Of a DNA stretch of 64,000 nt, positions 11,904 through 51,905 are shown in pieces. Every line of letters starts with the position of its first letter. Within the stretch, counting starts at the first letter, position 1. Both the position numbers and the translations under genes were made by a program. Where the stretch lies: NCBI GenBank assembly GCA_000091205.1, contig AP006497.2. One strand, given 5' to 3'. Under the pieces are notes generated by a model. It saw nothing but the letters and a program-made list of their open reading frames with translations, had not been told where the DNA came from and searched no databases. Source of the DNA: Cyanidioschyzon merolae (Eukaryota).

Positions 11904-11904
11904 G

Positions 11905-11964
<60 letters not shown>

Positions 11965-17633: not shown

Positions 17634-17825
17634 CGGCGTCTTCGATGCCCCTTGCAGACCAAGAATGCGTGACCGCCCGCTGGTATAGGGCGCTGTAGCA
17701 ACTACTTGGAGCGTCTTCGATGCCCCTTGCAGACCAAGAATGCGTGACCGCCCGCTGGTATAGGGCGCTGTAGCAACTGCTTGGAGCGTCTTCGATGCCC
17801 CTTGCAGACCAAGAATGCGTGACCA
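17634..17825. repeat. 75-bp minisatellite of about 2.6 tandem copies, roughly 470 bp upstream of the PMS1 start.
   Basis: Unit ggagcgtcttcgatgccccttgcagaccaagaatgcgtgaccgcccgctggtatagggcgctgtagcaact(a/g)cttg repeated head-to-tail. The 75-bp period also shows as repeated 25-aa blocks in the ORF track. Confidence 0.9.
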
Positions 17826-22192: not shown

Positions 22193-22967
22193 AAAGCGAA
22201 TTTTTCCATGATGAAACAAGTACCGGAAGGAATGCGCAGTTTGCATATACTGTCGAGACATACCGATCGATCTACGCTCCGCTTGTGCAGAGTGATGACC
22301 CAAGCTCCTCTGCAGGATATCGCTGGGTCCACAGCACGCCGTGCTCAAGATGCTTTTCGTTGCAAGCACTGGAGACAGGAGTCTCTGGAGGCACGTCCCG
22401 TGAGCGGTTTCGTTCGGCTGTGGACTGCCGTTTCTTCCACAGCGACAAAGGGATGAGGTTTTGTGTCTCGAACCGGATCGATTGCTTGCTGACGTTCCAG
22501 GTCCAGGGAGTATGCGGCGCGCGCTCCTGAACACGTCCTCAAGCCACGTCGTCGAGTTTTGGTCTCTCGTCTATCCAGCGGCGTGCACGACCGCGCCCTC
22601 GACTTGCCCTGAACTCGAAAGATCCACAGCATGAAACATGTGTGATTTGCGCACAGTACACGTCATGACATGGGAAGCGTGGCGGCGTGTCCGTATGAAC
22701 TGCATCACGATAGCGGTTGGTTAGGATTCCTTGCTCCAGCGTGTCGAGAATCAGCGTGCCTGCTGTCGCATACCGAGAATCCGGCGGCAAAGAGACGATG
22801 GAGCCAGTCCGAAAAGGCATCGAAGCACCCTAAATTTACGTATGAACCCGAAAGCCCATCTTGCAGCACTGAGCGTGTCGAGTCTATATACCTACAACAT
22901 TGGACGGGAGCAAAACAATCGAAACGCAGAAACAGTGAGGAGTAGAGCGCTCCACCGTCTTCTGACG
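22193..22967. repeat. Copy B of the roughly 780-bp direct repeat pair (copy A at 14857-15637).
   Basis: See copy A. Confidence 0.9.
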
Positions 22968-25674: not shown

Positions 25675-26714
25675 ACGCTGCAGCTGGTAAAAAGAGGTAC
25701 CTCCAAAGACGCTGATACTCTCCGCTAATCGAGCTACAAGACATGCTCTGCAAAGAAGAGCTAGGAAGGGCTCTTGCAGTATGCTGCAGCTGGTAAAACG
25801 AGGTACCTCCAAAGACGCTGATACTCTCCACTAATCGAGCTACCTAGACATGCTCTGCAAAGAAGAGCTAGGAAGGGCTCTTGCAGTATGCTGCAGCTGG
25901 TAAAACGAGGAACCTCCAAAGACGCTGATACTCTCCGCCAATCGAGCTACCAAGACATGCTCTGCAAAGAAGAGCTAGGAAGGGCTCTTGCAGTATGCTG
26001 CAGCTGGTAAAACGAGATACCTCCAAAGACGCTGATACTCTCCACTAATCGAGCTACCTAGACATGCTCTGCAAAGAAGAGCTAGGAAGGGCTCTTGCAG
26101 TATGCTGCAGCTGGTAAAACGAGGAACCTCCAAAGACGCTGATACTCTCCGCCAATCGAGCTACCAAGACATGCTCTGCAAAGAAGAGCTAGGAAGGGCT
26201 CTTGCAGTATGCTGCAGATGGTAAAACGAGATACCTCCAAAGACGCTGATACTCTCCACTAATCGAGCTACCTAGACATGCTCTGCAAAGAAGAGCTAGG
26301 AAGGGCTCTTGCAGTATGCTGCAGATGGTAAAACGAGATACCTCCAAAGACGCTGATACTCTCCACTAATCGAGCTACCTAGACATGCTCTGCAAAGAAG
26401 AGCTAGGAAGGGCTCTTGCAGTATGCTGCAGATGGTAAAACGAGATACCTCCAAAGACGCTGATACTCTCCACTAATCGAGCTACCTAGACATGCTCTGC
26501 AAAGAAGAGCTAGGAAGGGCTCTTGCAGTATGCTGCAGATGGTAAAACGAGATACCTCCAAAGACGCTGATACTCTCCACTAATCGAGCTACCTAGACAT
26601 GCTCTGCAAAGAAGAGCTAGGAAGGGCTCTTGCAGTATGCTGCAGCTGGTAAAACGAGGTACCTCCAAAGACGCTGATACTCTCCGCTAATCGAGCTACC
26701 TAGACATGCTCTGT
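25675..26714. repeat. Tandem satellite with a 106-107-bp unit in about 10 copies, showing higher-order alternation of two unit subtypes. It lies in the intergenic region between the DEAD-box and acyl-CoA synthetase-like genes.
   Basis: The unit cagctggtaaaacgag(g/a)(t/a)acctccaaagacgctgatactctcc(g/a)c(t/c)aatcgagctac(c)(t/a)agacatgctctgcaaagaagagctaggaagggctcttgcagtatgctg recurs head-to-tail. Variant positions alternate in copies 3-6 and are homogenised in copies 7-10. Confidence 0.95.
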
Positions 26715-30085: not shown

Positions 30086-33000
30086 AGAATCGCGTTGACA
30101 GAGAGGCATGGAGGCAGACAGTGGTGCATTTCGCTATGGCAGCCGATCCTAGTGCATCCAGATTCTGGGCACGGTTTGCAAAGGGACCTACTTGGGCGAC
30201 AAGTCGGGTAGATGCCATTATTCATCTTTCGCATGGTTGCGAGTATTGCATTCCAGACGGTCTTTATGATCGTATGAAACGAAATGTTAATGTGACGGTG
30301 GCAAAATCTCATGGCGTCCTACAGTGTACGCAGAGCAGTGCTTTTGGATACACATGTGTGAGCGCGCTCCCTTTTTTGTTGTTGTTTTTCGAGTAGGTAT
30401 TCAACAAAATGGGTGTATCCATAATATTCGAGAGACGTGGCCGGAACACGTGAAGCTACCCCTTGAAGCTTGTGGAAAATGGATTCACTTGCTCTAGAAA
30501 GTTTTGTCTAGGCTTAATAGGTGGGTGAACCATGTCTCTTTCAGGTCTGGTTGCGAGCGTCATGGACCTAAACAGACCATGTCAAACATAATTCACGCAA
30601 TTGGCCCCTGGTCAGTACGTATCACTCCCGATATTCTCTACGACCTATGACAAAACGCCACAGGATGTGAGGTTCACACAAGGATCATACTTATAATCAT
30701 GCATAGACACAGATGGAGGGAACAAAGCATGCCTTGATGTGCGATTCGTGCATATTGAACAATACACGATCGATTCGGGAGTGAAATGCGAACGCCTGAT
30801 ACAAGAGCGAAAAGCGTTCGTCTCAGTTGATGAGAATGTCCTCACGCGAAATGATAGATATGGATATGGGGATCGAATGGATGACAAAGCGCTGTTCCTA
30901 AGGAAGAGACAAGCCAGCATAATGACATCTTCGGTAATAGCGACGACTTAGCCGTGTGAAGGCCTACAAGACGCGTCAAACGGAAGATATCGCTCAACAC
31001 CAGAACCGTCGTTGAAGCAGTTCTTGCCTGCATTGTCCCGTATTCGGCGGTCATGCTCCTGCTCAGCGCGACTTCCCGTTGTTCCAAAGCGGTCGAGGTG
31101 TACGCAGCTGACGTTGGTTTTGCGATACTGCACTTGCGAACATCTCCTCCCTGGTTCCGTTCAATCGACGGCGTATGCTGTCTTGTCGAACACCATCTCT
31201 ACGACGGCGTATACGTAGACGAGTCATTCGCATCTGGAACATCAAAGTTCTTCGAGGAGTCGTACGCGACCTTCACCAGTCCTGAACGGGCCTGTTGCTC
31301 CTCTGCACATGCGTAGGAGCGGACGGAGCGGCGCGCTTCGGTACGTGAGCGTGCTCGCGACAGCAAAGGCCTAAACCGTACATGAGGAATTGTGTTCACT
31401 GATGCATCGAAGAGAAGGGCACCATTGCCAACGTCTACTCAGGTCGTCTGATTTCCGTTGACTCAATGGGCTTGGAGTGGAGCGCCCACGCCTACGCAAA
31501 CCTGAAAACTCACGGAGAAGGCGAAGCGGTAGAAGGGGAAGAATGTCACCTCACAAGCAACAGTCAGTTGCTTTCGAAAACAGCACAAGGAGAGATCGGA
31601 AGGAAAACTGGTTGTTGCGGGGAGGTCACTCTGGACGCAGTGTCAACGCCTCGCTATGACGACACGTCAACGGGGAGGATCCTCCAAAAAACGAGTTTCG
31701 GGACGCCATGAAGTCTCTCGAAGCTTTCCTCATCTTGATGCGCATCGTCAAACACTTGTGCTTAGGCGAACCGGACGCACGATTTCGGTCTCCCGTACAC
31801 TTCTTGGGATTTGCTCTATCCATCCGGCATGCGGCAACACAACTGATACCCAGGCCAGAAGATGCAACACCGCCTGATTGTAGGATAAGAACGTTGAAAA
31901 CGCGCTCTCGAGGATAGCTTGCGGCGTCGCCGTGCCACCTCGGCGATGAGCGCGTCTACGACGCGTTTGCGGAAACTTGTGAAACTAACCTCCGCATCCA
32001 TTTGTGGATCGGTCTGGAGCACTTGAGAAAGTATATCTTGTCGGTGTTGGGCGGTCGTATTCTCGGAGCATCGGTCGAGAACGCGGGAACCTATGCAAGG
32101 AAGGAATCCTTAGAATGTCGATTGCGGCAGATGACGTGCTGACGTTGGCGGCCGATGCTATCGATGCGCTTGTGCGTTCCAAAGAGGTGTCGCAACGAGC
32201 GCGTTGATCGCTGCAGATCATCGAAGTTCATTGGGTCGCTCACGGCCTCGCAGCGGCGGACATCGTACCCCACGCTAGATGAACCGCGATGCATCTTGCG
32301 CTATGACAATATCGAGAAGCGAACTCCCCCGAGCCAGGCGGACTTTCTTTCCGAATGCGAGCGCCCGAGCCGCTTCCACCGGCAATGACATGTGGTACCC
32401 GAACGGGAGCTAGAGGCCGAGTATATCATCGTTGACGCATGGATAGCGTATGGTCTCCTTAATGGGCTATGGCTGGTCTCTGCGACCAACATTGCAGCAT
32501 TCGAACAGCTTCGCGAAGAGCATCGGCCGCGCTTGTTCAAGATTTCCCGTTTACCGGAAAGAGAGACACAGAAGCATACATAGACGAGTGAGAGCAGCAG
32601 ACGATCCTTCTGCATGTGCTATGTTAGACTCAGTGCTGAGTCGAATAACGGGGCTCGTTTTCAAATGCTCCAGGTAGCTTTTACAGACACTGCGTGGCGG
32701 GCGTAGATTCCTGGTTGATGGGCGTCGTGGCGGTCGCAGTACCGCCAGACCAAGGTGACAGAGCCAAGAGACCCGTACGCAAAGCAAGTGAAGCTGCCCG
32801 ACTTGCCCAGTGCCCAGGATCGTCGAGTCGGGCATGATATACGCCCGGGTGCATACGAACGAGCGGCATGACTGCTTCATGGACCATGGCAACGCCCTGA
32901 GCATCGTATCGCGCAGAAGGAAATGCTTTGTACACTACGGTATGTGCGCTAATGAGCGTCCACACGGCTGTTGTGGACGATTTCTGGCCTCGGTACATAA

Positions 33001-33299
33001 GCCATCACGGAGATCGCCAACGTTTATTGATGGACGAATGCGAGAAGCGTACGTCTGCGAGCTTGTTCCATGAACAGGGAAGGTAGATGACCGATTACGC
33101 GCGTCATTTAGCGGCGGTGGGAGCCCCTGCCGCAGGACGCGTTGTCGAGCGAAATAGCTACGCTCCTCCTCTCTCGAACAGAGTGTACAGCGGGTGCAGG
33201 AATCGATTCTATAAGATTTCTGTCGATGCTTTCAGGATGACATTCGCGCGTCACGAGCACATGTGCTCGCTCCAAAACGTTTAGAAGCGGGAAGCGAAT

Positions 33300-33750
33300 C
33301 AGAGACGGACGCACGACATGGTGCCTCGCGTACGGACGGCATATTAGGTAGCGAGGCAATCGAAGGGAAACGACTTGCGGGGGTGTGATTCCACCAGCAA
33401 GCGTTCGCGCAAGCACTCGCTGCACCGTCACTTGAGCGTCTCGGTGAGCACTGGGAAATCTGTAGGAGTTCAGGAGTGTCCAGCGGCTTGGAGTTGTGCG
33501 AGCGTTAACGGAATCAATTTGTACACAGTGCATGGGTATTGTAGTGAATCGCAGGGGGCCTCGCGATGAAAACGATCATTAGTCACGAACGTGCGCATTG
33601 GACTCTCGCATGGTGCAACGCAAGGAAATGGTGCGGTTCAGCGATCCACTGAGACTGGAACGCCCTGCATACACACCAGAAATGGTTTACATTGCCATGC
33701 GGTAAACGACAATGGTGTTCCGTTGATTGCTATTTTTCTGAGTGCAAGTC
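33300..33750. repeat. Copy 1 of a roughly 450-bp direct repeat pair (copy 2 at 38931-39381).
   Basis: About 98-99% nucleotide identity. Identical ORFs in both copies (MR(G/W)CDSTSKRSRKHSLHRHLSVSV…; MRIGLSHGATQGNGAVQRSTETG…). Confidence 0.9.
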
Positions 33751-33893
33751 TGAAAATTAGCAAGTACCTTAGATCTGTACCAGGATGTCACCTTTTATTA
33801 GAATGCATGTGGCGAAGAAGGCAGCGCAACAGATTGAACGCTGCACTGCTGAATTGCGTTTCCTCCTCAAAACTGATCGAGTCCTTCGAAGCT

Positions 33894-34145
33894 CACCCAG
33901 CATCGGCATGATAGTTTTCAATCTCGACCGAGCATGTGCAATTGAATCGGGAACTGAGCCTCGCCTGGAATGGATTTGCGGCTGTACAGGATCTCGAATG
34001 CGGGAAAGGGCTTCGAAGCTCACCCAGCATCGGCATGATAGTTTTCAATCTCGACCGAGCATGTGCAATTGAATCGGGAACTGAGCCTCGCCTGGAATGG
34101 ATTTGCGGCTATACAGGATCTTGAATGCGGGAATAGAGATACTGA
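33894..34145. repeat. Tandem duplication, 2 x 126 bp, immediately downstream of repeat copy 1.
   Basis: cttcgaagctcacccagcatcggcatgatagttttcaatctcgaccgagcatgtgcaattgaatcgggaactgagcctcgcctggaatggatttgcggct(g/a)tacaggatct(c/t)gaatgcggga is repeated twice with 2-3 mismatches. Confidence 0.9.
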
Positions 34146-35181
34146 TCTAAAGCGCTGTGCAACAGAGTGTGCGCAGTCGCAAGGGGCTCCCCGCTTTCGT
34201 ATCATATAATCGGGGCTGCAGCGCGGCGCACAAAGAACGCTGTTTCGATCGTGGCTAGTGCGGGTGTTTCGCGCCCGCCGGTTACAGGTGTAGGGACAAG
34301 TACAAGGTCAGTCGACAGCTCGATACTAGCTCGCGAGCACGTATTTGAGCTACTGCTCTTTGCGGCCGAAACGAGAAAACTTGCATGCACAGCGATCCCT
34401 CGTCCTACAACCTGGCTGGCTCGGAGCGCCACACTCGATCTCTGCAAATGAATACGGTGTCGCTGCTCAGAGAGTTCCACAAAAGTAATGCTCCACGTGC
34501 AGCGATAGGCGCGCATGGCGTTGCGCGAACATAACCAAGATGCTTCGCGAGACGGGATACGCAGGCACCTACTTGCACACTCTGGCAACGTTCCGACACG
34601 TATCCCCGCTCGGAAAAGACCCCGTCGCGCCGCATCATCCCGAGTACGCGTCTGCGTGGAGAGAAGCCTATCTCTGCCCGCAGCCGATACCGCGATATCG
34701 AGAGAGCTGAGTCCTGAGCATGCAGCGTTCGAGTCCAAGCTACACAGCATCACGCCCATAGGAAACGCGATAAGCATTGTTGTGACGAAACGTTGGCCAT
34801 GCGAATTGTCTTGATTCGGCATGCACACAATCCATGCAGCCGGACCTTGACCTATCGAGTGCAATCGATGCGCGTACCAAGCGTTCGCTAGTGCACAATC
34901 GTCATCAGCGTCTTGAGATGCAGCCTCTGGGCTACGAAAATCCCAAGATGTTTTCGCATCGCCTACCAGCGATGCATCTGCAGAGCCCCGACTATGCACA
35001 CGCACACACCGGATCGAGTGCGTGCGTGCGCGCGTAAAATTCTCCCGCGATCACCGCAGGACACGCATCGCTGGCGGGGCGCCACTTTTTCCCTCCGATG
35101 CGTTTCCCGCGGAGACGGATAGCATCGCCCTACCGCTCCATTCATATCTAATTAACTCATGTATTCTTTCTGCTTTAGCCT

Positions 35182-35967
35182 ATGGCCTGTAGAATAAACG
35201 CGGAGAAGGACTTCGAGGCAGAGCCCGAGTCTTCCACGAGCGGTACAGGTAGCCGGGCGGAGCGCAACCGCGTTTTGCCTGAAAGAGCAGGCAGAGCAGC
35301 AGAGTCCATCGTATCCTGGGGTCCTGAAGTGTACGACGCTGCCGCTGCTTTGTCGCAGTTGCGCGAGAACACGCACTGCGGGCCGCCAACACAAACGAAG
35401 CGTCGTGGACGGCCAAAGAGAACTTTCCGTTCTCCGACACCTTTCGGGCCTACCGGACCGAACCGCCGCTGGAAGCGATTCGAGGCAGGTCCAGGGCTGC
35501 GTTTAGAACTGACGCGGACGGAACTCGAAAATAACGCGTCCACGCAAGTGGAGTGCCCTCAGCCGAGCTGTGGTCGTGTCTTTGGATCGCGGCAGGCGTT
35601 GGCCGCACACTTGCGGCATTTTCCATCTCATCGTTCTTTCTATAACGAAAACGTAGGTCATCGGTATGGTAACTCTCGCGTACGTATTCGCTACATCGCA
35701 GCAGAGGAGTCGCACCAGGCTGCTTGCGGATCGGAGATGGCGCCTTCTTCGGCGCCCTTGGCGACTGCCCGAATGGAGGTCCCAGTGGATCACGCATCCA
35801 GGGATCAGGCTGAGTCGAGGGAGCGTTTCGCCAAACGAAACCTTGTTGGCGGTCGTGTGCTGGGCAATCTCACCAATATCGCTGCCCAGATCAATGAACA
35901 AGGCGTTTCTGTGTGTGACGATGTGGCACGAACTCCGGGCGCCTTGGAATCGAAGCGCGTGTCGTAA
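35182..35967 (+). CDS. C2H2 zinc-finger protein with an AT-hook (putative DNA-binding regulatory protein).
   Basis: Single C2H2 finger VECPQPSCGRVFGSRQALAAHLRHFPSH. AT-hook KRRGRPKR. The rest is low complexity. Confidence 0.45.
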   Translation: MACRINAEKDFEAEPESSTSGTGSRAERNRVLPERAGRAAESIVSWGPEVYDAAAALSQLRENTHCGPPTQTKRRGRPKRTFRSPTPFGPTGPNRRWKRFEAGPGLRLELTRTELENNASTQVECPQPSCGRVFGSRQALAAHLRHFPSHRSFYNENVGHRYGNSRVRIRYIAAEESHQAACGSEMAPSSAPLATARMEVPVDHASRDQAESRERFAKRNLVGGRVLGNLTNIAAQINEQGVSVCDDVARTPGALESKRVS

Positions 35968-36875
35968 GCCAGCTGGCACCGAAGACTCCGCAAGCCTACT
36001 TTCGCCTTCCAGGTGCGCGACTGGTGCGGTTACCAGAGGCGCACAGAAAGCGCCATCGAGTCGCACCAGCGTCACGGGGTCGTATACGTTTGCTGCTGCA
36101 ACCGCCCTGCTGTTGTTTCCTCCTGTTCATGATTGGTGCCAACGCTCCGATTCTTTCTGCGAAATGGTGACGGCAACGTAGCAATCACGCAGACAGCGCA
36201 ACCAGAACATGCGAATCACTGGATATCGTCTGGTTTGCCACACATCGCGAACCCATCTCTCAAATATGGTACCTGCACATGCTCCGGGTTCGAGTGCAGG
36301 CCACAGCGGTGCGCGTCTCTCAGAAATGGCATCGGCAGGAGCTTCCAGTTCGAGTGTAAGGCGCACCTCCTTGAACGCCGTGCAACGCGATGGTGCGATT
36401 CCTGATTGTCGGCGAGCTCGCAGGCTGCACGACCGGGGCATCGAGTGGATCATCCGAATAGAGGGAGCGCGTTGACGACCTCAGCGCCGAATGCATCCGC
36501 AAGAGATACGACTTTCGCATCCTTTACGCAGATCGTCTAAAGCAAGATTGATGATGGACACAAGCTCGACGAAGCGCCTTTGCTAGTGCGTGTGCATGAT
36601 CGCGAGGCATTCTGATACCGCAGTTTTCGAGGCCAGCCACGCCGCCCTTTTGCTGCGAAATACCCGCTCCATACGAGCGTCACTCGCTGTATCTCAATCG
36701 ACGACGTTGAAGCGATTGTGCAGACAGGAAAACATGAGGTTCTTAGGCAGGGTCAAAGCGGTTCTGGGCTCCAAGCTATGCGCAAACGCTGCCTTTGCCA
36801 AAAGGCCAAGCAGCTTGCATTCAGAATTCGAGGTGAGGCTCCGACGGAGGCTCAGCACGTCGGCAGTCTGTAACC

Positions 36876-38360
36876 CTAACGATTCATTTCGCTGGCGGGA
36901 GCGTCGTCCGAGACGGCCTGCAAACGGTAAATTAATTGAGCATGCGCAGCGATCAGGGATTCCCCTCTGGAGCCGAACACACAGCTCCCCATCTGATGAC
37001 GTAAGCGAGGAACCACAACAGATGCCACCCTAAGAGCGTCTTCCAGACGGTACACGTGGATTACACCGGCATCCGTTGCAACGCATACCAGGCCGGGATC
37101 AACGGCAGTCCCGATGTGGTCCTCATCGAGCGCGACATCGATAGCGCCGCATCCTCCTCCGCTGCCGCGCAGTCCAATGACCCTCTCGCCCCGCCCGGAC
37201 TGATTCCAGATATCTGTACCCTTCTCATAATCAAGGTAGCGTAACGAATCAGATGTTTTCACGACGAGACCGCGCGGGCCACAGCGCACGACTTCGACAG
37301 TACTCGCAACTGCTGCAAGGAGGCGACCACCGTCGAGTTCAGCCAGTCGACCCTGCAACACTTTGCTTTCCGCACCGGGTGCCTCGGCCGGCCCCGTCCA
37401 AGTGCTCTCCTCAAATCTGAGTTGCCACACTCGGATTTCGGACGGCTTCGTACGCGCTACGAAAAGCGCATCCTCCGGAGAGAGCGCGAGCGCTGTCGGC
37501 CGTTCCAGATGGACTCGCCCGATGAGCTGCACATGACGATGACCGCCCAGAAGCTGCCATACACAAACCCCATTCCCTGAGGCAGATGCGAAGACACCCT
37601 CGCGGCTGGGGTGGGCGCCCACCGCGCGAATGCCGAGTGCATCAGCAACCGCATGCAGATCGACTGCGGTACAGGCCTCTGCTGCGGAGAGCGGTTTTCC
37701 AGCTTCATGCGATATGATGAGGATTTCCGAGGCTTCCGCGATGCTGAGAACCCGCAGCCGACCAGAACGGCAGCCGATGACGACCAGCGTCTCCAGGGTT
37801 GCTTTGCCTCGTTCACTTGCTGGCACCCATCGCTCTAGCCAGGAGCGCTGCTCCCTCGTCGTGACCGGCAGTACGAAACAGCAACAGGTGAACTCGTCTC
37901 CATCCGAAGACCGAAAGGCAACACACAAGTCCAAGTTCGGACCCAGGTGCTCGTTATCATAAACAAAGCAATACTCGGAAGAAAGAGAGGCGATTAAGTT
38001 GTGTGCAGTTGCTTGCACTGTGTTGCGCTCGAGTGCGCGAATATCTTCGTTGTGCGGTTCACGAATGATTCGCTTAAGCTCCAGTTTCTTCAAGTTCGTT
38101 TCCCATACTGACATGAAGCGGAAAGTCCAAACGTCCTTAACTGACTTGTGCGCTACCCAGGTGAGTACGCACCAAAAGCGGTAGAAAAAAGATACGGAGA
38201 GAGCGCGGGCACGGGAGACGCGCGCCTTCCCGCGCCCTGGCCAGCACGACAGCTGCGCCATCGAATGTGTCGCAGCTGCGGATACGGGCTGGTGTGCGCT
38301 CGCAACCACTCGACGCAGTATCGACCATAGTGGATTCTCGGGGAAAAGCCTGATTTTCAA
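36876..38360 (-). CDS. WD40 / beta-propeller repeat protein, function unknown. The real start is probably an internal Met (MSVWETNLKK…).
   Basis: Recurrent WD-like blades ending …GVIHVYRL, …NGVCVWQL, …SEIRVWQL, …RLRVLSI, at intervals of about 40 aa. Confidence 0.5.
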   Translation of the reverse strand: MKIRLFPENPLWSILRRVVASAHQPVSAAATHSMAQLSCWPGRGKARVSRARALSVSFFYRFWCVLTWVAHKSVKDVWTFRFMSVWETNLKKLELKRIIREPHNEDIRALERNTVQATAHNLIASLSSEYCFVYDNEHLGPNLDLCVAFRSSDGDEFTCCCFVLPVTTREQRSWLERWVPASERGKATLETLVVIGCRSGRLRVLSIAEASEILIISHEAGKPLSAAEACTAVDLHAVADALGIRAVGAHPSREGVFASASGNGVCVWQLLGGHRHVQLIGRVHLERPTALALSPEDALFVARTKPSEIRVWQLRFEESTWTGPAEAPGAESKVLQGRLAELDGGRLLAAVASTVEVVRCGPRGLVVKTSDSLRYLDYEKGTDIWNQSGRGERVIGLRGSGGGCGAIDVALDEDHIGTAVDPGLVCVATDAGVIHVYRLEDALRVASVVVPRLRHQMGSCVFGSRGESLIAAHAQLIYRLQAVSDDAPASEMNR

Positions 38361-38930
38361 TTAGACGTATGCGCGATGGTTGGTTGAAGCTCCATTCCAT
38401 GTTTGAAATGATGCATGCTTGCCTAGAAGACGATATTCGGTGCGCACTGGGGATATCTGGTTTGTCCCGACGATCCAATACGAAATATATCCATCGTTAG
38501 GCAGTGGCGGCGTCGTGCACTTGGACCTCCACGGTGCACGCCGCTCGTATCATGACAGTAAGGCAACGATGCCTGTATGTGGATGTGTGCTGGATACGGA
38601 ACGTCAGGAACGTGGGCCTGCGCGAGAACGTGGCAAGGCCATCCAGAGGGCACAGACAGCGTCGAACGGGCCCGTGAATCGGAATCGTGGGGTATCGGAG
38701 AGCGCCGCACTGGGGCAGCGGATAACCGTCGTATTCGTAAGGCGGATGTGGTCAGGGGCATTCCCCAGTTACCATGCGCTAAGTATTCGATGGTCCAGGT
38801 GAGGCCTTCGAACGATCTCGCTATTGATTGGGCTGTCTGTGGGCGGCCTATACAGAAGGTTTGTCGAATCAGGAAATCGTGTACGTGTGACCGTTGACAC
38901 ATCGGGAGTGAACCAGATTTCTCCGTAAAA

Positions 38931-39381
38931 CCCAGAGACGGACGCACGACATGGTGCCTCGCGTACGGACGGCATATTAGGTAGCGAGGCAATCGAAGGG
39001 AAACGACTTGCGGTGGTGTGATTCCACCAGCAAGCGTTCGCGCAAGCACTCGCTGCACCGTCACTTGAGCGTCTCGGTGAGCACTGGGAAATCTGTAGGA
39101 GTTCAGGAGTGTCCAGCAGCTTGGAGTTGTGCGAGCGTTAACGGAATCAATTTGTACACAGTGCATGGGTATTGTAGTGAATCGCAGGGGGCCTCGCGAT
39201 GAAAACGATCATTAGTCACGAACGTGCGCATTGGACTCTCGCATGGTGCAACGCAAGGAAATGGTGCGGTTCAGCGATCCACTGAGACTGGAACGCCCTG
39301 CATACACACCAGAAATGGTTTACATTGCCATGCGGTAAACGACAATGGTGTTCCGTTGATTGCTATTTTTCTGAGTACAAG
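38931..39381. repeat. Copy 2 of the roughly 450-bp direct repeat pair (copy 1 at 33300-33750).
   Basis: See copy 1. Confidence 0.9.
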
Positions 39382-39493
39382 TTTACCAACCCCAGTACGA
39401 TGGAGCGCGTGACACAGCTTTCCGGTACGCATACCTGGTATTCCAACAACCCAGTGGACGTGCAAACACGAGCACAACCCCTTTGAACTGAAG

Positions 39494-40435
39494 TTGAAGG
39501 AAAGGTACATCGTGCAACGCTTTCCCAGTCCGGGATCATCGCGTTCATCTGTGCGACGCGGTGCTCTGGGATCGATTCGCATTCCGCGTGGAGCTTTGGT
39601 GCATGGAAACCGAATGTTTGTTGGAACGGGTACCGCAAGGTTTTTCGCCACAAAAGCCCAAAAGGCAGCAAATGCAGGACAGCAGCACGGCCGTTTTACT
39701 GGCTATGACCACGTCGTGCTCGTGAACCGAGTGAATGCGCCGCGACGACCTCGCGGTAACACGCGAAACGCTTCCAGTGCCTTGCGCATTCAGCAGCCTC
39801 TATCACTTTCAGCGAACTTGTTCCGGAACGAAAAGAAAAATGATTGGCCACGCTGTTTCCCGCAGGTGCTCTGTGGGCTTCTAGTGGCGTTGCAGCTCCA
39901 GTCGAGCGATTGCACGGTGTTCGCGAGCGCGAACCCCACCGAGAACGCTGGTACGGCACCGCTCGAAGCAGAGCCATACCTGAAACAAGGGCGACCCGTC
40001 CCAGCGACGACTGAGCCACTGACTCTGGGTCATGCCGCGGATGTTGAGCACCGCGTCACGCGCGACGCTACAGGCACCCTGATTCCCCTCGACATTGTGC
40101 AGCTGCGGGCACCGCGCGACGTTCGCTCGCCGCCAGTTCGGTCACGAGATGCCGTGCTTGTCCGGTACGTCGCGTTCCTTGAAGATGGAACTGTGATCGA
40201 AGACAAGAGAAACGGCAAAACTCCGGTTTTCTTCCGGGCGGGCACTGCAACCCTGCCGGCGGCTGTCGACTTGGGGGTGGAGGGTATGCGGGTCGGCGAG
40301 CAGCGACGTGTTCGCGTCCGAGCGGTGGACAACTTTCACGGAGTGAATCTGCGGCTAGGCGCTGCTGCTGTGGTACCACGTGAGAGTACCCTTTATTATG
40401 ACATAGAGCTGGTCGGGATCAATCCGTATTCGTAA
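39494..40435 (+). CDS. FKBP-type peptidyl-prolyl isomerase-domain protein (divergent), with an RG-rich N-terminal region.
   Basis: The C-terminal domain VLVRYVAFLEDGTVIEDKRNGKTPVFFRAGTATLPAAVDLGVEGMRVGEQRRVRV…LYYDIELVGI aligns with the FKBP12 fold (V.Y.G.LEDG..FDSS…PF.F.LG…VI.G…GV..M.VGE…L.I…LVFDVEL). Confidence 0.5.
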   Translation: MKERYIVQRFPSPGSSRSSVRRGALGSIRIPRGALVHGNRMFVGTGTARFFATKAQKAANAGQQHGRFTGYDHVVLVNRVNAPRRPRGNTRNASSALRIQQPLSLSANLFRNEKKNDWPRCFPQVLCGLLVALQLQSSDCTVFASANPTENAGTAPLEAEPYLKQGRPVPATTEPLTLGHAADVEHRVTRDATGTLIPLDIVQLRAPRDVRSPPVRSRDAVLVRYVAFLEDGTVIEDKRNGKTPVFFRAGTATLPAAVDLGVEGMRVGEQRRVRVRAVDNFHGVNLRLGAAAVVPRESTLYYDIELVGINPYS

Positions 40436-42179
40436 GCGGTAGATCCGGATCACGCGGGGCATCACATGGACGATTTCAGTTCGCGCTTCATGGGTATGAT
40501 CAAAAAAACTGGTGTGTGCACCTCTGCCCTGAATGATCGTAGTGCTTGCTGACGACCCAGGACGTGTTATTTGCACAAGCAATCGAGAATAGCTGCCAAT
40601 GACGCGTAACAAAACTGACCGAGCTGAAACCGTGACGAAATGTCGACGACTAGGTACCCGCGAGATGGAGTTCGGCCACGAGTCGTTGGCGCTCGTGCTT
40701 ATCACCGTGTACGCAACGACGACGCCAAAGTCAGCGTGAAATGGAACGGGTGTACACGCTCACGTTTGAGTCTCTTCCCATCGTTATCAATGCCAGCGTT
40801 TGCGCGCTTTTTCTGTGACTGTTTCCTTTTCATCTGTGCGAATACGGGTATTCTATAGGCCGGCTTCTGTTCTCGCTCCAGCGCCATTTTCAACGGTTGA
40901 GGGATGTTGATGGCAGCGTTAAAGTCGCGATTCCGTAGCTTGCTCCTGTTATCGAAGCGATTCATGCGTAAGCAAAAGTCACGAACAAAGCTTCACTTGT
41001 CGTTCTCATCTCCGTTGCGTCCAGCCTCGATACGCTTTTCGTGGCGCTGACACATGCTTGTTACGGGGGTGCTCCTGGGCGTCCGCCGCACTTGATCCTC
41101 CGAGAATCGCCCTGGGGCGCGTTCAGGTGTGCGTCATCGCGCTTTACATACCCTGGACGGATACAGAGGTGTCTCCCCGGTTCCATCATCCGTTTCCGCG
41201 TCCAGTTTATTACCCTACGATCACGACTTTCGTACGAGCGATCCGCTCGTCGAGTATCCTGCTCGCTGCGCGCGTACACTGTTCTTTTCGATAGAGAATT
41301 TGTGAAACACGGTGTTGCCCGTAATGGCACGAGAATCGGAAGGGACATAACGGCTGGAGAACGAGTCGTAGCATGTCCTTACGTCAACGCTGGCTTTGCC
41401 AAAACCGGTGATCGATGTTCCGCTGGAACCAATCGCTGCGAAGTCGCAAGTCCGAGTCCAAGACTCTATTCCATAATATAGAAGAGACGGCAGTCTCTAT
41501 GAACATGTCCCGTGGGCGGTAAAATGAGGATCTAGTGTTCGGTTCCGTCGATCTCCATGCGAAAATTTTTCTTTCCGATGGAGACGATTATCTAACATGG
41601 CAAGTTCAAGGAGCGCTTCGCTTGCGCCTATGAAGCGTTACTCAACGAACCATGCCGACGCTTTTTAGGCGGCGATCTAGCGACGCGAACTTTCTGCGCC
41701 CACGCGTTACTCTGAAACAGGAAGATCGAAAGCTTCAAAAAGACTAGAGTAGAGAAGCAGGATACATGTCAGCAAACTCGAAAAGCGGAGACGTGTGTAT
41801 ACGAATTGGAAGGCGATCTCGGTTGCTTTTACGAACCCAAGTGCGAGGGCGTCGTGAATCATCTTGACTTCAGCTACGAAATGCATCCCAGCGACAGAGA
41901 GTTGATGAACCCATTCTGAAAAGAGGACCGAGAACCCCAAATCTACATATGAATCTTTCAGCCCCGATCTCTACCCGAGAAATGTTGATGCTGTACATGT
42001 ACAAAAAAAAGAATCGAAAGACCGAACATGCAGGATAGGAACGACTCGTCCAGGGTTCCATTTTTAAGCGAAACGGACCTCGGCGCAAAAGCAAAAGCTT
42101 CCAACCAGTACAGATTTGAAACTTATCGACCAGCTCTCCGCTCTGGCCGACCGCCTCCCTCTCTCTCACCAGAACAGCA

Positions 42180-44414
42180 TCACGCGGTAAATGCTTGTAC
42201 CCATAATGCGTTCCACTGAGCGAGTGCGGACAGCCAGTCGTGACGGATGCTCGGCTGGTCGACCTCATGATCATTCGCTGCGGCGCCGTGCCTGCTGGCA
42301 TCATCCATGCGAGACTCTGGTGCGACACATGCGGAGGCCTCGCTCGAGGACTCAGTCACTGAAGCGCTTGTATGAACATCAGTCGACATCCATAAGCAGG
42401 TATCGAACAACGCGTACGTGATCTCATGTCCAGGGGATACGTTTCGAGCCGCACACTGCGGCAAGATGTGTTGAATGACGATTTCGAGCAGCTGGCGACG
42501 TAAGCACGCTGGCAAGTCCGTCGAGGAAAACATGCGGCTTGCTCGCTGCAGCATCTCCAAAATTTGTTCATCAGAGAGGAATATTCCGCGAAGTTTGCAT
42601 AGGATAAGCTCGTAAAACTGAGCATAGTCCGGCAAAAACGCAAGCGCTGCTAAAATTTGCCGCCGCTGTTGACCCACGGAAGCAGGAGCCGGGCGATCCT
42701 GCAGCGCAGCCTCAAACGCGTCCAATAAACTCTGCTTCTGTGCAAGAAACCACATCATGTCCGGCAACCGCACGGAATCACCGATTTCCAGGCGGCGCAT
42801 CTGTGCAGTGCAACATCGCAAAGCCTTTTCTTTTTGCCCCAGAAGGACCCATTCGTAGAAGGCAGCAGGCCATATTGCGTTTGCTTCCAGCAGGCGCGCA
42901 CGAGCAGCGTGCAGCGCATCGCCCAAGGCCTCGCGCTCTAAAGTGGCGACTCCCGCACGGTGCATCATGCGTATTGCTTCGGCCTCGAACAGCCGTTGCT
43001 CCCGAAGAGAATGCAGACTGGATGGGATCAAGGCCAAAAGCATTCCTGACACGGCATTGGCCGCGGCAAACGACGTCCGGTAACGTAGAGTCATGCGCCA
43101 ATAGTCGGTAAATTCAGTGCGCTCCATGAGTGTGTCAGCGTATCGCTGCATAAGCGGGCCTGCGATGGACGTCATACCGCTCGGAGGAGAACATGTGTCC
43201 GCCATGTGAACGGCGTGCCAGATCCCAAAGGGAAAAAGTGTCAGTGCCACTATGGCTTCTTCAAAGTGGCCCATAGCTATCGCGTTGGATATCCAGTACA
43301 GCACTGCAGCGGGTTCCAGACTGCCTTCTCGTATCGTATCGAGGTACTCGGCAGGGGACGCGAGCGGAAACCTCAGACAAGCGCTTTTCGCTGCTTTCGA
43401 GGAGAGCGCTGCGAATGAGCGCTCGTCCTCATAGCTTCCGCGTCCGTACAACACATGGGCTATGAAATCATCCGCCCAGTTCCTTACAACGTCTAGGGAA
43501 AATTCCTCCTCACCACTGAGGCATTTTAGGAGTTGATTCGCCTCATGGAGCCCGTCTATGTTGCGTCCATTAGCTCCTAGCTGTGAAAGCGTCTCTGCGG
43601 CAACAGCGCACGCTTCCTGCCATTGTCTCCAGTTCGGGGCAGTGAGTGTTTCGGGAGCCTCGTGCAGCGCTGCCGCCACCAGCTCAAGAACCGATGTCGC
43701 GTCTAGCAGTTGTGTGTCGCCACCCGCTCGATCGTTCCTGCTTTTGGACAGCGCAGCGCCCAGCAGCTCCAGCGCAGCAGAAGGTCGACCCTGGGCGCAG
43801 GCGCGATGAACGGCCCGCCAGTCCAGGGTGCCGGAGCGTTCAGAAGGTGCGCTTTCCGGGTGCTCGGGTTCTGCGGTACTCACGCCAGCATACCACTGGT
43901 GCAGACACTCGTCGATGGACAAAACATTTTCAAGCGGCTCGTCGCAAAAAAGCAGCGCCTGGGCAAGCCGCCAAATGCCCCCGAGCGCGGGTAAACTCGC
44001 CAGCACCCGCGCCTCTTCTGAACTGCCACAGTCGCTCGCTTCAAGACCGTGTGCCGAAGTTGACTGCGCACTCACCTGCTCTACCAGGTCGACATAGGAT
44101 TTCCAGGCAACATGGCGCTCACGCGAGCTTCGCACACCAGGCTGATCGCGAAAGCAGCGCCATATTGCATAACCACCACAAACGAGCTGTGCTGTGGGCG
44201 TTAAAGAGCCGTTCTGGAACACTTGCATGACCCGATCGGGACGCCTCGTCCACCAGTCGAGTGCAGGGACGCTGCCTGCCACTTCCAGTGCGATCAAGTT
44301 CCGAACCCAGAGATAGACTCTGGGTACACGTGGAGAACGGAGCTGGTGCAGGCCCTGAAGGATGCATTCTTCTCTAGCTGCAGTGCGCCGGTGCGCGAGC
44401 GCAGGTCCGAACAT
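42180..44414 (-). CDS. Alpha-solenoid protein, probably a nucleoporin of the Nup85/Nup75 class. 744 aa, single exon.
   Basis: Segments resembling human NUP85: LLKCLSGEEEFSLDVVRNWADDFIAHVLYG versus [33 protein letters not shown], and TAPNWRQWQEAC versus ELKWQHWHEEC. Helical-repeat composition throughout. The family call is from memory, not a search. Confidence 0.5.
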   Translation of the reverse strand: MFGPALAHRRTAAREECILQGLHQLRSPRVPRVYLWVRNLIALEVAGSVPALDWWTRRPDRVMQVFQNGSLTPTAQLVCGGYAIWRCFRDQPGVRSSRERHVAWKSYVDLVEQVSAQSTSAHGLEASDCGSSEEARVLASLPALGGIWRLAQALLFCDEPLENVLSIDECLHQWYAGVSTAEPEHPESAPSERSGTLDWRAVHRACAQGRPSAALELLGAALSKSRNDRAGGDTQLLDATSVLELVAAALHEAPETLTAPNWRQWQEACAVAAETLSQLGANGRNIDGLHEANQLLKCLSGEEEFSLDVVRNWADDFIAHVLYGRGSYEDERSFAALSSKAAKSACLRFPLASPAEYLDTIREGSLEPAAVLYWISNAIAMGHFEEAIVALTLFPFGIWHAVHMADTCSPPSGMTSIAGPLMQRYADTLMERTEFTDYWRMTLRYRTSFAAANAVSGMLLALIPSSLHSLREQRLFEAEAIRMMHRAGVATLEREALGDALHAARARLLEANAIWPAAFYEWVLLGQKEKALRCCTAQMRRLEIGDSVRLPDMMWFLAQKQSLLDAFEAALQDRPAPASVGQQRRQILAALAFLPDYAQFYELILCKLRGIFLSDEQILEMLQRASRMFSSTDLPACLRRQLLEIVIQHILPQCAARNVSPGHEITYALFDTCLWMSTDVHTSASVTESSSEASACVAPESRMDDASRHGAAANDHEVDQPSIRHDWLSALAQWNALWVQAFTA

Positions 44415-49204: not shown

Positions 49205-51649
49205 TATTTAAGAATGATGACTCGAGCTCTGAGAAGAGCGGAACGCTATCGCCGAAAACCGGGAAAGCCATCCATGCAGCGGGATCGCGAGGTCGAGTGA
49301 GTCGCTCCCGGGCCGCTCGCAGCGCCCCCGCCAATTTCGTGGTCGCAATCGGAGTTTCGATTTTCGGGAAATTGACGGCTGCTGCTCGGCTGGAGAACCG
49401 GTGGTGAGTCAGTTCTTGTAGGCGTGGAGAATTCCGGAACACCTGTACCAGAATACCCCTTTCGTTTCAGTATATTTCTGTCATAGAGAATCAACGAAAA
49501 AATGTATCATGCAGGTTGGGGGAAGCTTGCGGACAAAAGGGATGATGTCGCTGCTGCCTTGTGACAAACGGCCTTGCTTCTGCCCGCTAGTCATTCCAAG
49601 GCCAGCACGTGGATGAACCGCTCTTGTTCTAGTCCTAACACGGAACGTTGTCCACGTAAATCAGAAATCAAACGCTATGTACACGATTGTCTACGTGCTA
49701 CTCTAGTCCACTGGAAAGTTTCCCCGTTGAATGCTATCAAACGAGGTACTGGATTTCAAGTTTCAGTATCGTTGATACGAACGATGATAAATAAATAGGC
49801 TTGGGAAAAGAATGAAGCACGGTTCTATGGGAAACCGTTGCGCATTGAAAACCATGCTCTCGGTTTCGCACTGAAACATGCACGCTTATTATGAAAGCGA
49901 CGGATGTTCACGTCACTCCATGAGACTGCAATCGGGAGCATTGTCAGATCCATGCATATGTGCACTGAACAAATGGGCAACTGCTGTCCATAAAGAACAT
50001 ACAAGCGTGTATGACGAGAACATCAGTCGAAATGGCGATTCGGTTGTGTATTCGGTAGCCTGTTCAACGCGCTGGAAGCAAAAGTCACCAATTCGCGGTG
50101 TCGTTGGGTTGTGGTAGCCACTATGACGGTGGGCGCAGTACAGCGCGCAAAGGCTGCCATCCCGCCCCCTTGGCAAGCGCGTATGGTGTGCACAGGGTTC
50201 GATGCTATACGAGTCCCACGGATATGTTCAGGACCGAATACACGTGCGAGGGTCACAGATGCGCGCTGAACCAGGCGGAGAAACAGTATTCAAGCAGAGA
50301 CAGACGCACAAGGTGGTGTGCGGTAAGCTGATCGATTGTCGGCTACCAGGGCAATAATTGGTGAGAGTCTTGCTGTGGTGCACGTGCGCCAGCGATGGTG
50401 TGCCGAAGCGTTTCCTGTTCCGTACCCTAAACGGCTCGATAAACAGCAAGGAATGTCTTGTGCTCCTGGAAAGACCGGCGGATTAACTTCGAGAGAAGGT
50501 TCGGAGACATCGTTTGGTAGTTGGTATGGGTATGATAATGAAACGCTGAAGACTTGTGATACAAAAAAATCAGTGGCCAGAGAGACGGCATTGGAGTCTC
50601 GGATGGAGCAAGGCAACGACATGATACAGATCAACAATCGAGCCAGTCTACAGCGTTGCGTATAGGTGGATAGGGAACGGTTTTCTTGAGCAAGTGGTCA
50701 TCGACGCTGGCGCTCTGTTATTTGACATTATCGTATAAATCGATTCGATGAGTTAAACAAATTCATCTTGGGTACGGGAATCAGCCTGCAGATATCAAGG
50801 AGACAATCGAGTCACTGCGCGCACTTCAACGCTCGGGAAACTCGAGAATTACCTCTATTCCGTGCAGAGAGGTTCAGTAAATTCAGCAATTTTCTGGATG
50901 TCACTTATCCCGGAGACTGGATTTTGCTGGGGCGCCTCCTGCCGGCGATGGCGCGCACTCATGCTTTTTCGCATCCAGAGGAAAAGTACGCTCCAAGAAG
51001 ACCAGGAGGTCGAGGCAAACAGTTTTCGCTGCACCGCGACCTGCGAAGCAAATTTCATCACTTGCGTCATCCAGTAGGCACACGAGACCCAGTCCAGATG
51101 CGATGCACGCAACAGTGGCGAATTTCCGCGTTTCGCTACGTGCTTCCCCCAGGAACACCAGTTCTCATAGAAGGTTGCTATCGTTTTTGCGGGAGATCAC
51201 CATGAGCTGACCTCCGGTTCTCAGCGACTTTCGGACCCATTCATACCAGTCCTATCGCACTGATGAACTAGCGTCGACGTTTTGCGGATATCGCTAGAAC
51301 GCATGCGTCCATGTTTCTTGCATCGTACTTGCTCGGACACGGACACCAAGGCTAGATTCACTGACATGGCGGCCTCCCAGAGTTTTCTCACGTGTCCATG
51401 CATTTGAAAGAGACGTGATCGGAATCCCGCTGCCCCAACGTAGTATCCATTGAATCTGAAAACTTTATGAAGTAGCCTTTGCAGATCGCTGGTGCATCGT
51501 ATCTGATTCATTGTTTGTAGCAAACAAAAGCGTCATGTCTCTAACGTTTGCTAACACGTATAGGGGGAAGAACGGCATGGCTAGAGTTATTTGTGTACCA
51601 CGTGCAAGGCTACCTGCAATATATCCATGGAGCCCCTGCTGCGACGAAC

Positions 51650-51905
51650 TTATGAGGAAAGGCGGGCCGCTCTTCTGCGAACAGGTGAGCTGAAACGATC
51701 AACTCTTTTGCGAACAGATGAGCTGAAACGATCCGCTCTTTTGCGAACAGGTGAGCTGAAACGATCCGCTCGAGCGTTCCCTGGCGATTTACCCCGCCGC
51801 CGCTTGCCGCCCTGCGCACGCATTCCCCCCATTTCCCCCCATTTCCCCCCATTTCCTCAGTGCGCACGCATTCCCCCCGGCGCACGCATGCCGCCATGCG
51901 CACGC
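51650..51905. repeat. Cluster of short tandem repeats 180-430 bp upstream of the TRRAP start: a 36-bp unit x3, (CCCCCCATTT)x3, and (GCGCACGCATNC)x4.
   Basis: Direct reading: ttttgcgaacag(g/a)tgagctgaaacgatc(c/a)(g/a)ctc x3; cccccatttc x3; gcgcacgcattcccc / gcgcacgcatgccgcc / gcgcacgcatgcag. Confidence 0.9.

Follow-up and report, generated by a model that had tools for sequence, protein, structure and literature searches.

A near-identical 450-bp direct repeat pair around two conserved genes of Cyanidioschyzon merolae, probably a recent local duplication in an old dispersed family of non-coding repeats

Intergenic spacers of Cyanidioschyzon merolae were previously found to be about twice as long as those of Cyanidiococcus through repeat expansion, with repeat contents of 25.9% and 3.2%, respectively (Cho et al. 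2023, PMC9812998). The interspersed elements described in C. merolae included 253 copies of a WSV486-like element, which averaged about 3.2 kb and had a truncated ORF with weak similarity to WSSV WSV486, together with 26 non-LTR elements, three of which had an intact RT ORF; interspersed elements were also reported to be transcribed (Nozaki et al. 2007, PMC1955436). RepeatMasker-based work assigned 12.7% of the genome to the LTR class. Two repeat families, A and B, were identified in the 64-kb window (the whole stretch of C. merolae DNA that was analysed), and they resembled the published repeat-expanded spacers (PMC9812998, PMC1955436) in being located in the same genome, non-coding, confined to spacers, 58–60% identical among old members, and missing from the orthologous, much shorter Cyanidiococcus spacers. 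Family B probably belongs to the spacer repeat expansion known from this earlier work on C. merolae; the published accounts were genome-wide statistics, however, and neither family B nor young neighbour-to-neighbour truncated copies were found described there. Compared (by description only) to the WSV486-like element, the detectable homology was limited to 0.69 kb in family B and 1.3 kb in family A, with no frame-consistent conservation.

The window contained a pair of direct repeats, copy 1 (33300 to 33749, plus strand) and copy 2 (38933 to 39382, plus strand), which were identical at 447 of 450 positions (99.3%; three mismatches, no gaps; E = 0 in self-BLAST) and enclosed 5,183 bp of unique DNA (33750 to 38932). 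An earlier note on this DNA had placed these direct, about 99% identical copies at 33300–33750 and 38931–39381, and the pair was confirmed with copy 2 shifted by 1–2 nt. Copy 2 lay in the spacer between the divergent WD and FKBP genes; the first in-frame ATG of the FKBP ORF followed 232 bp downstream of it, and its boundaries were sharp, with homology absent past both of them. An independent 81-kb metagenome contig carried both copies in the same arrangement as the window, and metagenome contigs L012 and L019 spanned copy 2, the block, and copy 1; the repeat is therefore not an assembly artefact. Copy 2 was present in contigs L007, L008, L010, L011, L012, L013, L019, and L021, every natural haplotype recovered from metagenomes had both copies, and no allele with an empty copy 2 site was found.

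Copy 1 had one change private to 10D (G at 33744), while copy 2 had two (T and A at the equivalents of 33381 and 33485, respectively). Since all three differences between the copies were 10D-private and the copies were identical at 450 of 450 positions in the 81-kb contig, the copies had no differences ancestrally, which makes the duplication young. In public metagenome contigs, a 22-mer scan detected the unit at no other locus, a search at the protein level with the longest frame of the unit returned only ORF calls from this very locus, and neither search found near-identical relatives or relatives of intermediate divergence; the pair was thus upheld as a duplication that is genuine, young, and local, as opposed to a chance pair of insertions by a recent high-copy element. 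The concern that the unit might merely be a randomly placed dispersed element applied to the family, which was old and dispersed, but not to the near-identical pair, which was local.

Copy 1 made up the right-hand 450 bp of B1 (33060 to 33749, plus strand), an old non-coding interspersed element with a length of at least 690 bp. Family B was defined from three copies in this one 64-kb window: B1, B2 (identical to copy 2), and B3 (50057 to 50744, plus strand), an old diverged member in the divergent spacer between a 526-aa gene (minus strand) and Tra1 (plus strand, ATG at 52083). B1 and the region 50057–50729 shared 58.6% identity over 683 columns, with a Smith-Waterman score of 91 against 13.4 ± 1.2 for shuffles; this homology reached 240 bp to the left of the young repeat and ended at most 15 bp from its right end. 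Copy 2 lacked the left 240 bp of B1 and had the right end in common with it, and it is therefore taken to be a young left-truncated daughter copy. No further members of either family were detected by nhmmer profiles in the window or in Cyanidiococcus-type loci, about 100 kb of orthologous Cyanidiococcus-type DNA, with its much shorter spacers, contained neither family, and the most conserved B1/B3 block had 0 matches in a scan of viral contigs.

Family A comprised the old members A1 (9288–10590), A3 (21649 to 22966, plus strand; 58–60% identical to A1 and A4), and A4 (40746–41964), together with the young left-truncated copy A2 (14864 to 15638, plus strand). A2 was 99.1% identical to the right 775 bp of A3 (22192–22966), which represented the source-like copy of the second young pair in the window; full-length A3 lay 7.3 kb away from A2 and had the same orientation, and A2 kept the right end of the family. 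This 775-bp pair repeated, in a second old family, the pattern of the 450-bp pair.

The repeat-internal ORFs quoted in the earlier note were present at 33591–33911 (plus strand) and 33108–33533 (minus strand), with the copy 2 version at 38423–39166 (minus strand), and as it had stated, they belonged to no recognizable family (no Pfam match). Homologues outside this locus were not found among 5.8 billion proteins, and tblastx matches between the old paralogues fell in all frames, with no frame-specific conservation; a protein-coding unit was rejected on these results. These ORFs are best read as spurious, because the flanks that they enter differ between the copies and the old paralogue keeps no reading frame. 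Rfam gave 0 matches at the gathering threshold in the whole window and 0 at E ≤ 1 in 32800–34300, no tRNA was present, and the fold z-scores were -0.5 and -1.5; a structured RNA or a known RNA family was rejected on these results. The element is accordingly regarded as non-coding, given no frame-specific conservation, Pfam domain, Rfam match, or fold signal. B1 and a tandem duplication (see below) were located in an unusually long gene-free spacer of 5.1 kb (30086 to 35181) extending from an AMP-binding gene to the C2H2 gene, the Cyanidiococcus orthologue of which was 0.8 kb in length; no Pfam domain was found in any of the six frames of 30086–34885. A centromere in this 5-kb gap was considered and dropped: the GC minimum was merely 0.45–0.49 over about 800 bp, and no positional centromere data were found.

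The DNA between the two copies harbored two genes: (i) a conserved gene for a 261-aa C2H2/AT-hook protein (35182 to 35967, plus strand), in which the AT-hook core RRGRPxR and the C2H2 finger were invariant across three species, and whose orthologues were 54–55% identical and adjoined the WD orthologue in two relatives; and (ii) CMO040C (36876 to 38114, minus strand), which encoded a putative beta-propeller protein of 412 aa identical to CYME_CMO040C at 412 of 412 positions and shared 57–58% identity with its orthologues in full-length alignment (58–60% in local BLASTP). Given the complete match to CYME_CMO040C, the window almost certainly belongs to chromosome 15 of C. merolae 10D. The earlier assignment of the first gene as C2H2/AT-hook stood, while that of the second as WD40 is plausible but unproven, the Pfam beta-propeller matches being weak (E 0.009–0.1, far below cut-offs) and the AlphaFold model unusable (pLDDT 36). 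An FKBP-type isomerase gene (39614 to 40435, plus strand; PF00254, E 6e-14; orthologue CCYA04G1190) lay outside the bracket, directly downstream of copy 2. Both enclosed genes were syntenic, their order and spacing being those found in Cyanidiococcus and in a second relative. The view of the region as a repeat-bracketed block forming one unit was not sustained: its contents were two ordinary conserved host genes in Cyanidiococcus gene order, and the repeat was a copy, truncated on the left, of an older dispersed non-coding element, so the bracketing of the two genes looks incidental. Copy 2 was also located in the breakpoint spacer of a seven-gene inversion; a causative role of the repeat in this inversion was unsupported, the inversion being present in all strains and the repeat having no matching inverted partner.

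The pair was suited to nonallelic homologous recombination (NAHR), being direct, 450 bp in length, and 99.3–100% identical. Direct-repeat pop-out by homologous recombination was shown experimentally in C. merolae (PMC8504449), and the pair is a substrate for such recombination, through which the 5.2-kb block could be deleted or duplicated. Like the low-copy repeat pairs known from NAHR, the two copies were direct, at least 99% identical, and 450 bp long around a unique 5.2-kb segment, but here the arrangement was fixed in all natural haplotypes seen, with no confirmed rearranged allele. One contig, L007, displayed a deletion-type junction in which the left flank of copy 1 was followed by a single repeat and the right flank of copy 2; it started only 278 bp before the repeat, ended in a 95-bp assembler-type terminal duplication, and matched in both flanks the haplotype of the 81-kb contig, whose two copies were identical. 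L007 is explained equally well by a real deletion and by an assembly shortcut, and the two cannot be told apart. No circle or tandem junction was present among 20 natural contigs. Loss of the conserved single-copy enclosed genes may be deleterious in a haploid cell.

We regard the 450-bp pair, with moderate confidence, as the product of a recent local duplication in an old dispersed non-coding family, and the bracket as its by-product, not a mobile or regulated cassette. B1, the old resident element of at least 690 bp, would have been the source, and its right-hand 450 bp would have been copied into the WD–FKBP spacer 5.6 kb downstream, without a change of orientation or loss of the element's own right end, not long before the natural strains sampled here split. 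Tentatively, the copying step may have been an end-anchored copy-and-paste event via a transcript or cDNA joined into a nearby break: (i) the transcript or cDNA of the element would stop at its natural 3′ end, (ii) incomplete copying would lead to 5′ truncation, and (iii) a break in the chromosome nearby would take up the truncated product by blunt joining. As in non-LTR retroposons and SINE-like copies, the daughter copy kept the 3′ end, lacked the 5′ part, and had no coding capacity of its own, and sharing of the 3′ end with variable 5′ truncation was found for B2 versus B1/B3 and for A2 versus A1/A3/A4. In contrast to such copies, there was no poly(A) or simple-repeat 3′ tail (the right ends were ...TTTTTCTGAGTGCAAGT in family B and ...CGTCTTCTGAC in family A) and no target-site duplication (TSD) above chance, the best candidates at individual repeat copies in a TSD scan being 4–5 nt with offsets and equally common at random sites; classical target-primed retroposition is thus not demonstrated. 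Also atypical of non-LTR retroposition was a copy only 5.6 kb from its source in the same orientation, with repetition in a second family; distances of 5.6 and 7.3 kb in two of two cases would not be predicted by genome-wide retroposition and would need a proximity bias.

Alternatively, both copies could be old members of family B (one full-length and one truncated) kept identical through repeated ectopic gene conversion, as members farther away diverged to about 59% identity. Such concerted evolution is unlikely here, although C. merolae is highly proficient in homologous recombination, both near-identical pairs were close and in direct orientation as for a distance-dependent process, and the tract limits coincided with those of shared homology. 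Because conversion needs flanking homology to resolve, family-level divergence would be expected in the outermost tens of bases, yet identity extended up to the first and last base and was then abruptly lost; moreover, there were no members of intermediate divergence, and A1 was only about 60% identical to A2 despite being just 4.2 kb away from it. A strain-specific A at 33465 was found not only in L010 and L011 (in copy 2) but in L007, which has the left flank of copy 1; it could represent the spread of a substitution to both copies, but the L007 allele is uninformative in this respect, as its repeat may stem from copy 2 reads.

It is also conceivable, if improbable, that DNA-level repair of a break in the WD–FKBP spacer drew on a nearby 450-bp piece of chromosomal DNA, by replication template switching or by end-joining capture of a fragment, the identity of the piece as a repeat being irrelevant. 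Both junctions were blunt, without microhomology or TSD, the 4-nt filler of the adjacent tandem duplication is typical of end joining and indicates that such repair operates at this locus, and a local source with the same orientation fits template switching. Template switching usually leaves microhomology, however, and none was seen; furthermore, in both young pairs the end of the copied segment and the right end of the old family were only between a few and 15 bp apart, a coincidence very unlikely for random breaks in two independent events.

The sequence features of known element classes were also compared with the pair. As in LTR retrotransposons and LARDs, about 5 kb was flanked by direct terminal repeats a few hundred bp in length, but all diagnostic features tested failed, including insertion polymorphism against relatives: (i) the unit began with CAGAGACGG and ended with GTGCAAGT, not the TG..CA of LTRs; (ii) by direct reading, GCGAAT to the left of 33300 did not match TTACCA to the right of 39382 as an outer TSD; (iii) no PBS-like or PPT-like sequence was found at 33750 or 38932; and (iv) no gag, RT, integrase, or other retroelement Pfam domain was found in the interior or the spacer. 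With an interior composed of syntenic host genes, an LTR retrotransposon (including LARD and TRIM) was rejected. That the bracketed 6.1-kb segment is itself mobile or excisable, whether as an LTR retrotransposon, a LARD-like element, or a loop-out cassette with the C2H2 and WD genes, is hardly credible: its superficial LTR–5.2 kb–LTR layout with 99.3% identical terminal repeats, the resemblance of the L007 junction to a deletion or excision product, and the genome-wide LTR-class label (see above) are set against the missing termini, TSD, PBS, PPT, and gag/RT/integrase remnants, the 20 natural contigs free of circle or tandem junctions, the equally good explanation of L007 by an assembly shortcut, and above all synteny, by which this reading is largely refuted. 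A TIR DNA transposon or MITE was rejected as well, there being no TSD and no terminal inverted repeats (the best terminal local alignment scored 5–6 of 50, and no inverted repeats of at least 40 nt were found). Helitrons have 5′ TC and 3′ CTRR ends and insert between A and T; the unit started with CA and ended with AAGT, with flanks C|...|T at copy 2 and T|...|C at copy 1, and this class was likewise rejected.

Taken alone, the 450-bp pair is a minor finding, one documented example of repeat-rich spacer build-up in a model 'minimal' eukaryote. Both very young pairs in the window were truncated end-anchored copies near their sources, which, if general, would suggest a local mechanism of spacer expansion. 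A doubtful generalization from this is that spacer growth in C. merolae is partly driven by proximity-biased, end-anchored copy-and-paste of non-coding repeats, on the same chromosome and in the same orientation, over a few kb, and without TSD, with a transcript or cDNA of the element entering a break; within the 64-kb window, the proposed signature was displayed by both young pairs, which are independent (B1 to B2, 5.6 kb; A3 to A2, 7.3 kb). If true genome-wide, repeats would be spreading by an unusual mode that acts in cis, direct-repeat brackets around genes would be continually made in a recombination-proficient haploid genome, and natural deletion or circle variants could exist, of which L007 might be one. 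At the practical level, the pair could recombine and delete two conserved genes, direct-repeat pop-out being in routine laboratory use in this species, and short-read assemblies break or take shortcuts on chromosome 15 near CMO040C, which is relevant to engineering and re-sequencing.

The tandem duplication beside copy 1 (33884 to 34133, plus strand; 2.0 copies with a period of 127 by TRF and BLAST) began 135 bp after copy 1 and was composed of two 123-bp units (33884–34006 and 34011–34133) joined by a 4-nt filler AGGG (34007–34010). Its two copies had been noted earlier, and that part held, while the dimensions given then (33894–34145, 2 × 126 bp, 145 bp after copy 1) were corrected to the above 123-plus-4 structure. 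An origin by replication slippage or unequal crossing-over was not borne out either, as the 4-nt filler points to end-joining repair, and the duplication was not fresh, since its units differed at 2 of 123 positions and it was common to several natural strains. Two-unit alleles were found in 10D, L012, L019, and L011, while the one-unit alleles of L009 and L020 were, in base-level comparison, exactly 127 bp shorter and lacked AGGG; judged from these sequences, the array points to a separate repair scar, probably of end-joining type, that segregates in nature.

The 450-bp direct repeat pair was composed of the right part of an old non-coding dispersed element (copy 1, 33300-33749) and a young, local, same-orientation, left-truncated, and right-end-anchored copy thereof (copy 2, 38933-39382). 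Comparison of the window with itself aligned the two copies over 450 bp with three mismatches and no gaps, across a unique segment of 5183 bp; the direct repeat that the earlier note had described as flanking this block was thus confirmed, and both the repeat and the adjacent tandem array existed as features, with the positions assigned to them accurate to within 1–10 nt. Sensitive self-comparison further disclosed a third, old copy: 33060-33734 (within the old element B1) and 50057-50729 (its old relative B3) aligned across 683 columns (58.6% identity), and the Smith-Waterman score was 91, compared to 13.4 ± 1.2 in shuffles. The B1/B3 homology began 240 bp before the left edge of the young repeat and stopped at most 15 bp from its right edge, so that copy 1 was the right-hand portion of the longer element B1. 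The flanks of copy 2 had nothing in common with B1 or B3 in sequence comparison, and copy 2 was a left-truncated copy retaining the right end of the element.

A parallel case was provided by a second repeat family, designated family A. The window self-comparison displayed a 775-bp direct pair with 99.1% identity (14864-15638 and 22192-22966), of which 22192-22966 was the right part of a ca. 1.3-kb old element A3 (21649-22966), while 14864-15638 (A2) was left-truncated, kept the right end of the family, and lay in the same orientation 7.3 kb from the other copy. Two old relatives of A3 were located in spacers at 9288-10590 and 40746-41964 (58–60% identity). The 775-bp pair was built like the 450-bp pair, and the two very young pairs in the window followed one pattern: truncated, end-anchored copies a few kilobases from their sources.

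Between old members of families A and B (the latter including B1 and B3), tblastx matches were spread over every frame of either strand, and neither family was therefore coding. No Pfam domain was detected in any of the six frames of spacer 30086-34885, no tRNA or Rfam family was present, and the 450-bp unit folded no better than shuffled sequence. The two open reading frames inside the repeat, noted earlier as having no recognizable family, indeed gave no Pfam match; their ends extended into differing flanks at copies 1 and 2, and the longest in-repeat frame matched nothing among ca. 5.8 billion proteins beyond frames called from its own locus. The layout resembled LTR–5 kb–LTR, but the pair was neither an LTR element nor the border of a cassette: the unit started with CAGAGACGG and ended with GTGCAAGT, the repeat copies examined had neither terminal inverted repeats nor a target-site duplication above chance, and the interior consisted of host genes with conserved synteny.

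Searching ca. 100 kb of Cyanidiococcus-type DNA with nhmmer recovered no member of family A or B, and the orthologous spacers measured ca. 0.8 kb there versus 2.3–5.1 kb in the window. These observations matched the published repeat expansion of spacers in C. merolae, to which a mean spacer of 1890 bp, compared to 930 bp in Cyanidiococcus, has been attributed, with RepeatMasker repeats making up 25.9% of 10D versus 3.2% of Cyanidiococcus (PMC9812998). The 450-bp pair was an instance of these published expanded spacers, which ranked with 5′-truncated retroposon copies and low-copy repeat pairs as its closest known counterparts. Repeats reported from the 10D genome include a transcribed interspersed element of ca. 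3.2 kb in 253 copies and 26 non-LTR retrotransposons, three with an intact reverse transcriptase frame (PMC1955436).

When public metagenome contigs were scanned with a 22-mer from the center of the unit, four contigs gave matches, in five stretches altogether, every one being this locus (99.2–99.6% identity); an 81-kb contig harbored both copies arranged as in 10D. Another 16 contigs with near-identical alleles of CMO040C, a gene inside the block (412-aa cluster members P0004 and P0005), were included, and two of them (L012 and L019) extended from copy 2 across the block to copy 1. Neither copy was missing from its site in any contig recovered, and the young copy was fixed in the sampled populations. 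The unit had four variable positions; the three at which the 10D copies disagreed reflected changes private to 10D, and the two copies of the 81-kb contig were identical (450/450). The ancestral copies were therefore identical, and the duplication shortly preceded the split of these strains, now 0.4–1.1% diverged.

As for the copying route, two old members may have exchanged sequence by gene conversion over the long term, given copies that were close together and in the same orientation in a recombination-proficient host, but this was disfavored by (i) identity that held up to the first and last base and then fell to nothing, (ii) the absence of members of intermediate divergence, and (iii) family A member A1, which lay just 4.2 kb from A2 and yet was ca. 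60% identical. Random DNA-level duplication was disfavored since the copied segment stopped at the family's own right end in both pairs. End-anchored copy-and-paste was therefore the favored route: most likely, a transcript or cDNA that terminated with the 3′ end of the element would be incompletely copied, and the copy would be joined bluntly into a nearby chromosome break. The pair would be alike in mechanism to 5′-truncated retroposon copies but did not show their tail and target-site duplication; these two absences, together with the unexplained proximity to the source, were the weak points of copy-and-paste.

Direct-repeat pop-out is in experimental use in C. merolae (PMC8504449), and homologous recombination between the 450-bp copies could therefore plausibly delete or duplicate the 5.2-kb block; the pair had the structure of low-copy repeat pairs that mediate non-allelic recombination. 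The metagenome contigs included one of deletion type, L007 (JGI24721J44947_10028629; 5623 nt), which passed from window 33022-33299 through one repeat copy into 39383-44185. Its junction was of the type expected from deletion of the block, with the C2H2/AT-hook and CMO040C genes missing, and both its flanks were of the haplotype of the 81-kb contig, a strain group with essentially identical copies; L007 began just 278 bp ahead of the repeat and ended in a 95-bp assembler-type terminal direct duplication. A real deletion allele and an assembly-graph shortcut explained L007 equally well; the metagenome contigs recovered contained no circle or tandem junction and no confirmed recombinant of the block. 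Odd ends were also observed in L020 (nt 1-244 matching neither the window nor any fetched locus, and the other end coinciding with the repeat boundary at 33300), L018 (nt 1-46 and 1646-1758, rearranged), and L027 (nt 1-60, rearranged), all probably chimeric contig ends.

The tandem array (33884-34133) began 135 bp beyond the right end of copy 1 and comprised two copies with a period of 127 bp. Two-unit alleles were found in 10D, L012, L019, and L011, while the one-unit alleles of L009 and L020 were exactly 127 bp shorter. The two-unit join (...gcgggaa-AGGG-cttcgaag...) combined 123 bp of duplicated sequence with the 4-nt filler AGGG (34007-34010), which one-unit alleles lacked; this filler indicated end-joining repair at the locus rather than clean forms of the slippage or unequal crossover previously proposed. 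The units differed at 2/123 positions in 10D and the duplication was common to several strains, so it was polymorphic and not especially recent, contrary to its description as fresh.

For the gene map, Cyanidiococcus yangmingshanensis genes were aligned to the window with tblastn and two Cyanidiococcus loci were compared with it, giving the left-to-right order S28e, h203, h220, AAA_33, HNH, GST, h285, Yip1, MutL, DEAD helicase, AMP-binding, C2H2/AT-hook, CMO040C, FKBP (39614-40435, +), Nup85-like, class II aaRS, h526, and Tra1. The bracketed C2H2/AT-hook gene (35182-35967, +) and CMO040C (36876-38114, −) were conserved neighbors in Cyanidiococcus and a second metagenomic relative. The C2H2/AT-hook assignment was upheld, with AT-hook core and finger invariant in three species; the "WD40" label of CMO040C came from weak Pfam propeller matches, its AlphaFold model being too poor for use (pLDDT 36). 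The 412-aa protein was identical (412/412) to CYME_CMO040C of 10D, which placed the window almost certainly on 10D chromosome 15, as judged for the number by the CMO prefix of the gene name. In the P0001 cluster, some metagenome gene calls for CMO040C were 508 aa long (P0010 and P0016), and the frame in the window reached 494 aa from an upstream TTG; this N-terminal extension was probably a gene-caller artifact because it was not conserved in Cyanidiococcus (415-aa orthologues). The seemingly ORF-free right end of the window, 52083-64000, was one open frame spanning at least 3975 codons (MPSSPTPGELRARLEDPQL...), which started with an ATG at 52083 and ran off the window, hence its absence from ORF lists; its position matched Tra1 in the Cyanidiococcus locus, which pointed to a Tra1/TRRAP-type kinase orthologue.

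Seven genes (h285, Yip1, MutL, DEAD, AMP-binding, C2H2, and CMO040C; 13430-38114) were inverted relative to C. yangmingshanensis; the inversion was a simple one, flanked by GST and FKBP, with breakpoint spacers 11622-13430 and 38114-39614. The second metagenomic relative supported this comparison on the GST|WD side, and every natural C. merolae-type contig spanning the inversion carried it. Copy 2 was located in the right breakpoint spacer. The left one contained one arm of a 388-bp inverted pair (6543-6930/12692-12305, 97.9%) bracketing HNH and GST, whose relative orientation was nevertheless as in Cyanidiococcus, and one copy (12974-13300) of a direct spacer repeat of intermediate divergence (partner 1271-1620; 74% over ca. 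350 bp, core 86% over 200 bp). The 775-bp young pair bracketed Yip1 and MutL. Self-comparison also displayed several further tandem arrays: (i) 25677-26713 in the DEAD helicase|AMP-binding spacer (107-bp unit, ca. 9.7 copies, 96–98% identity), within which contig L009 terminated; (ii) 17636-17824 in the Yip1|MutL spacer (75-bp unit × 2.5); and (iii) 51667-51771 upstream of Tra1 (ca. 33-bp unit × 3).
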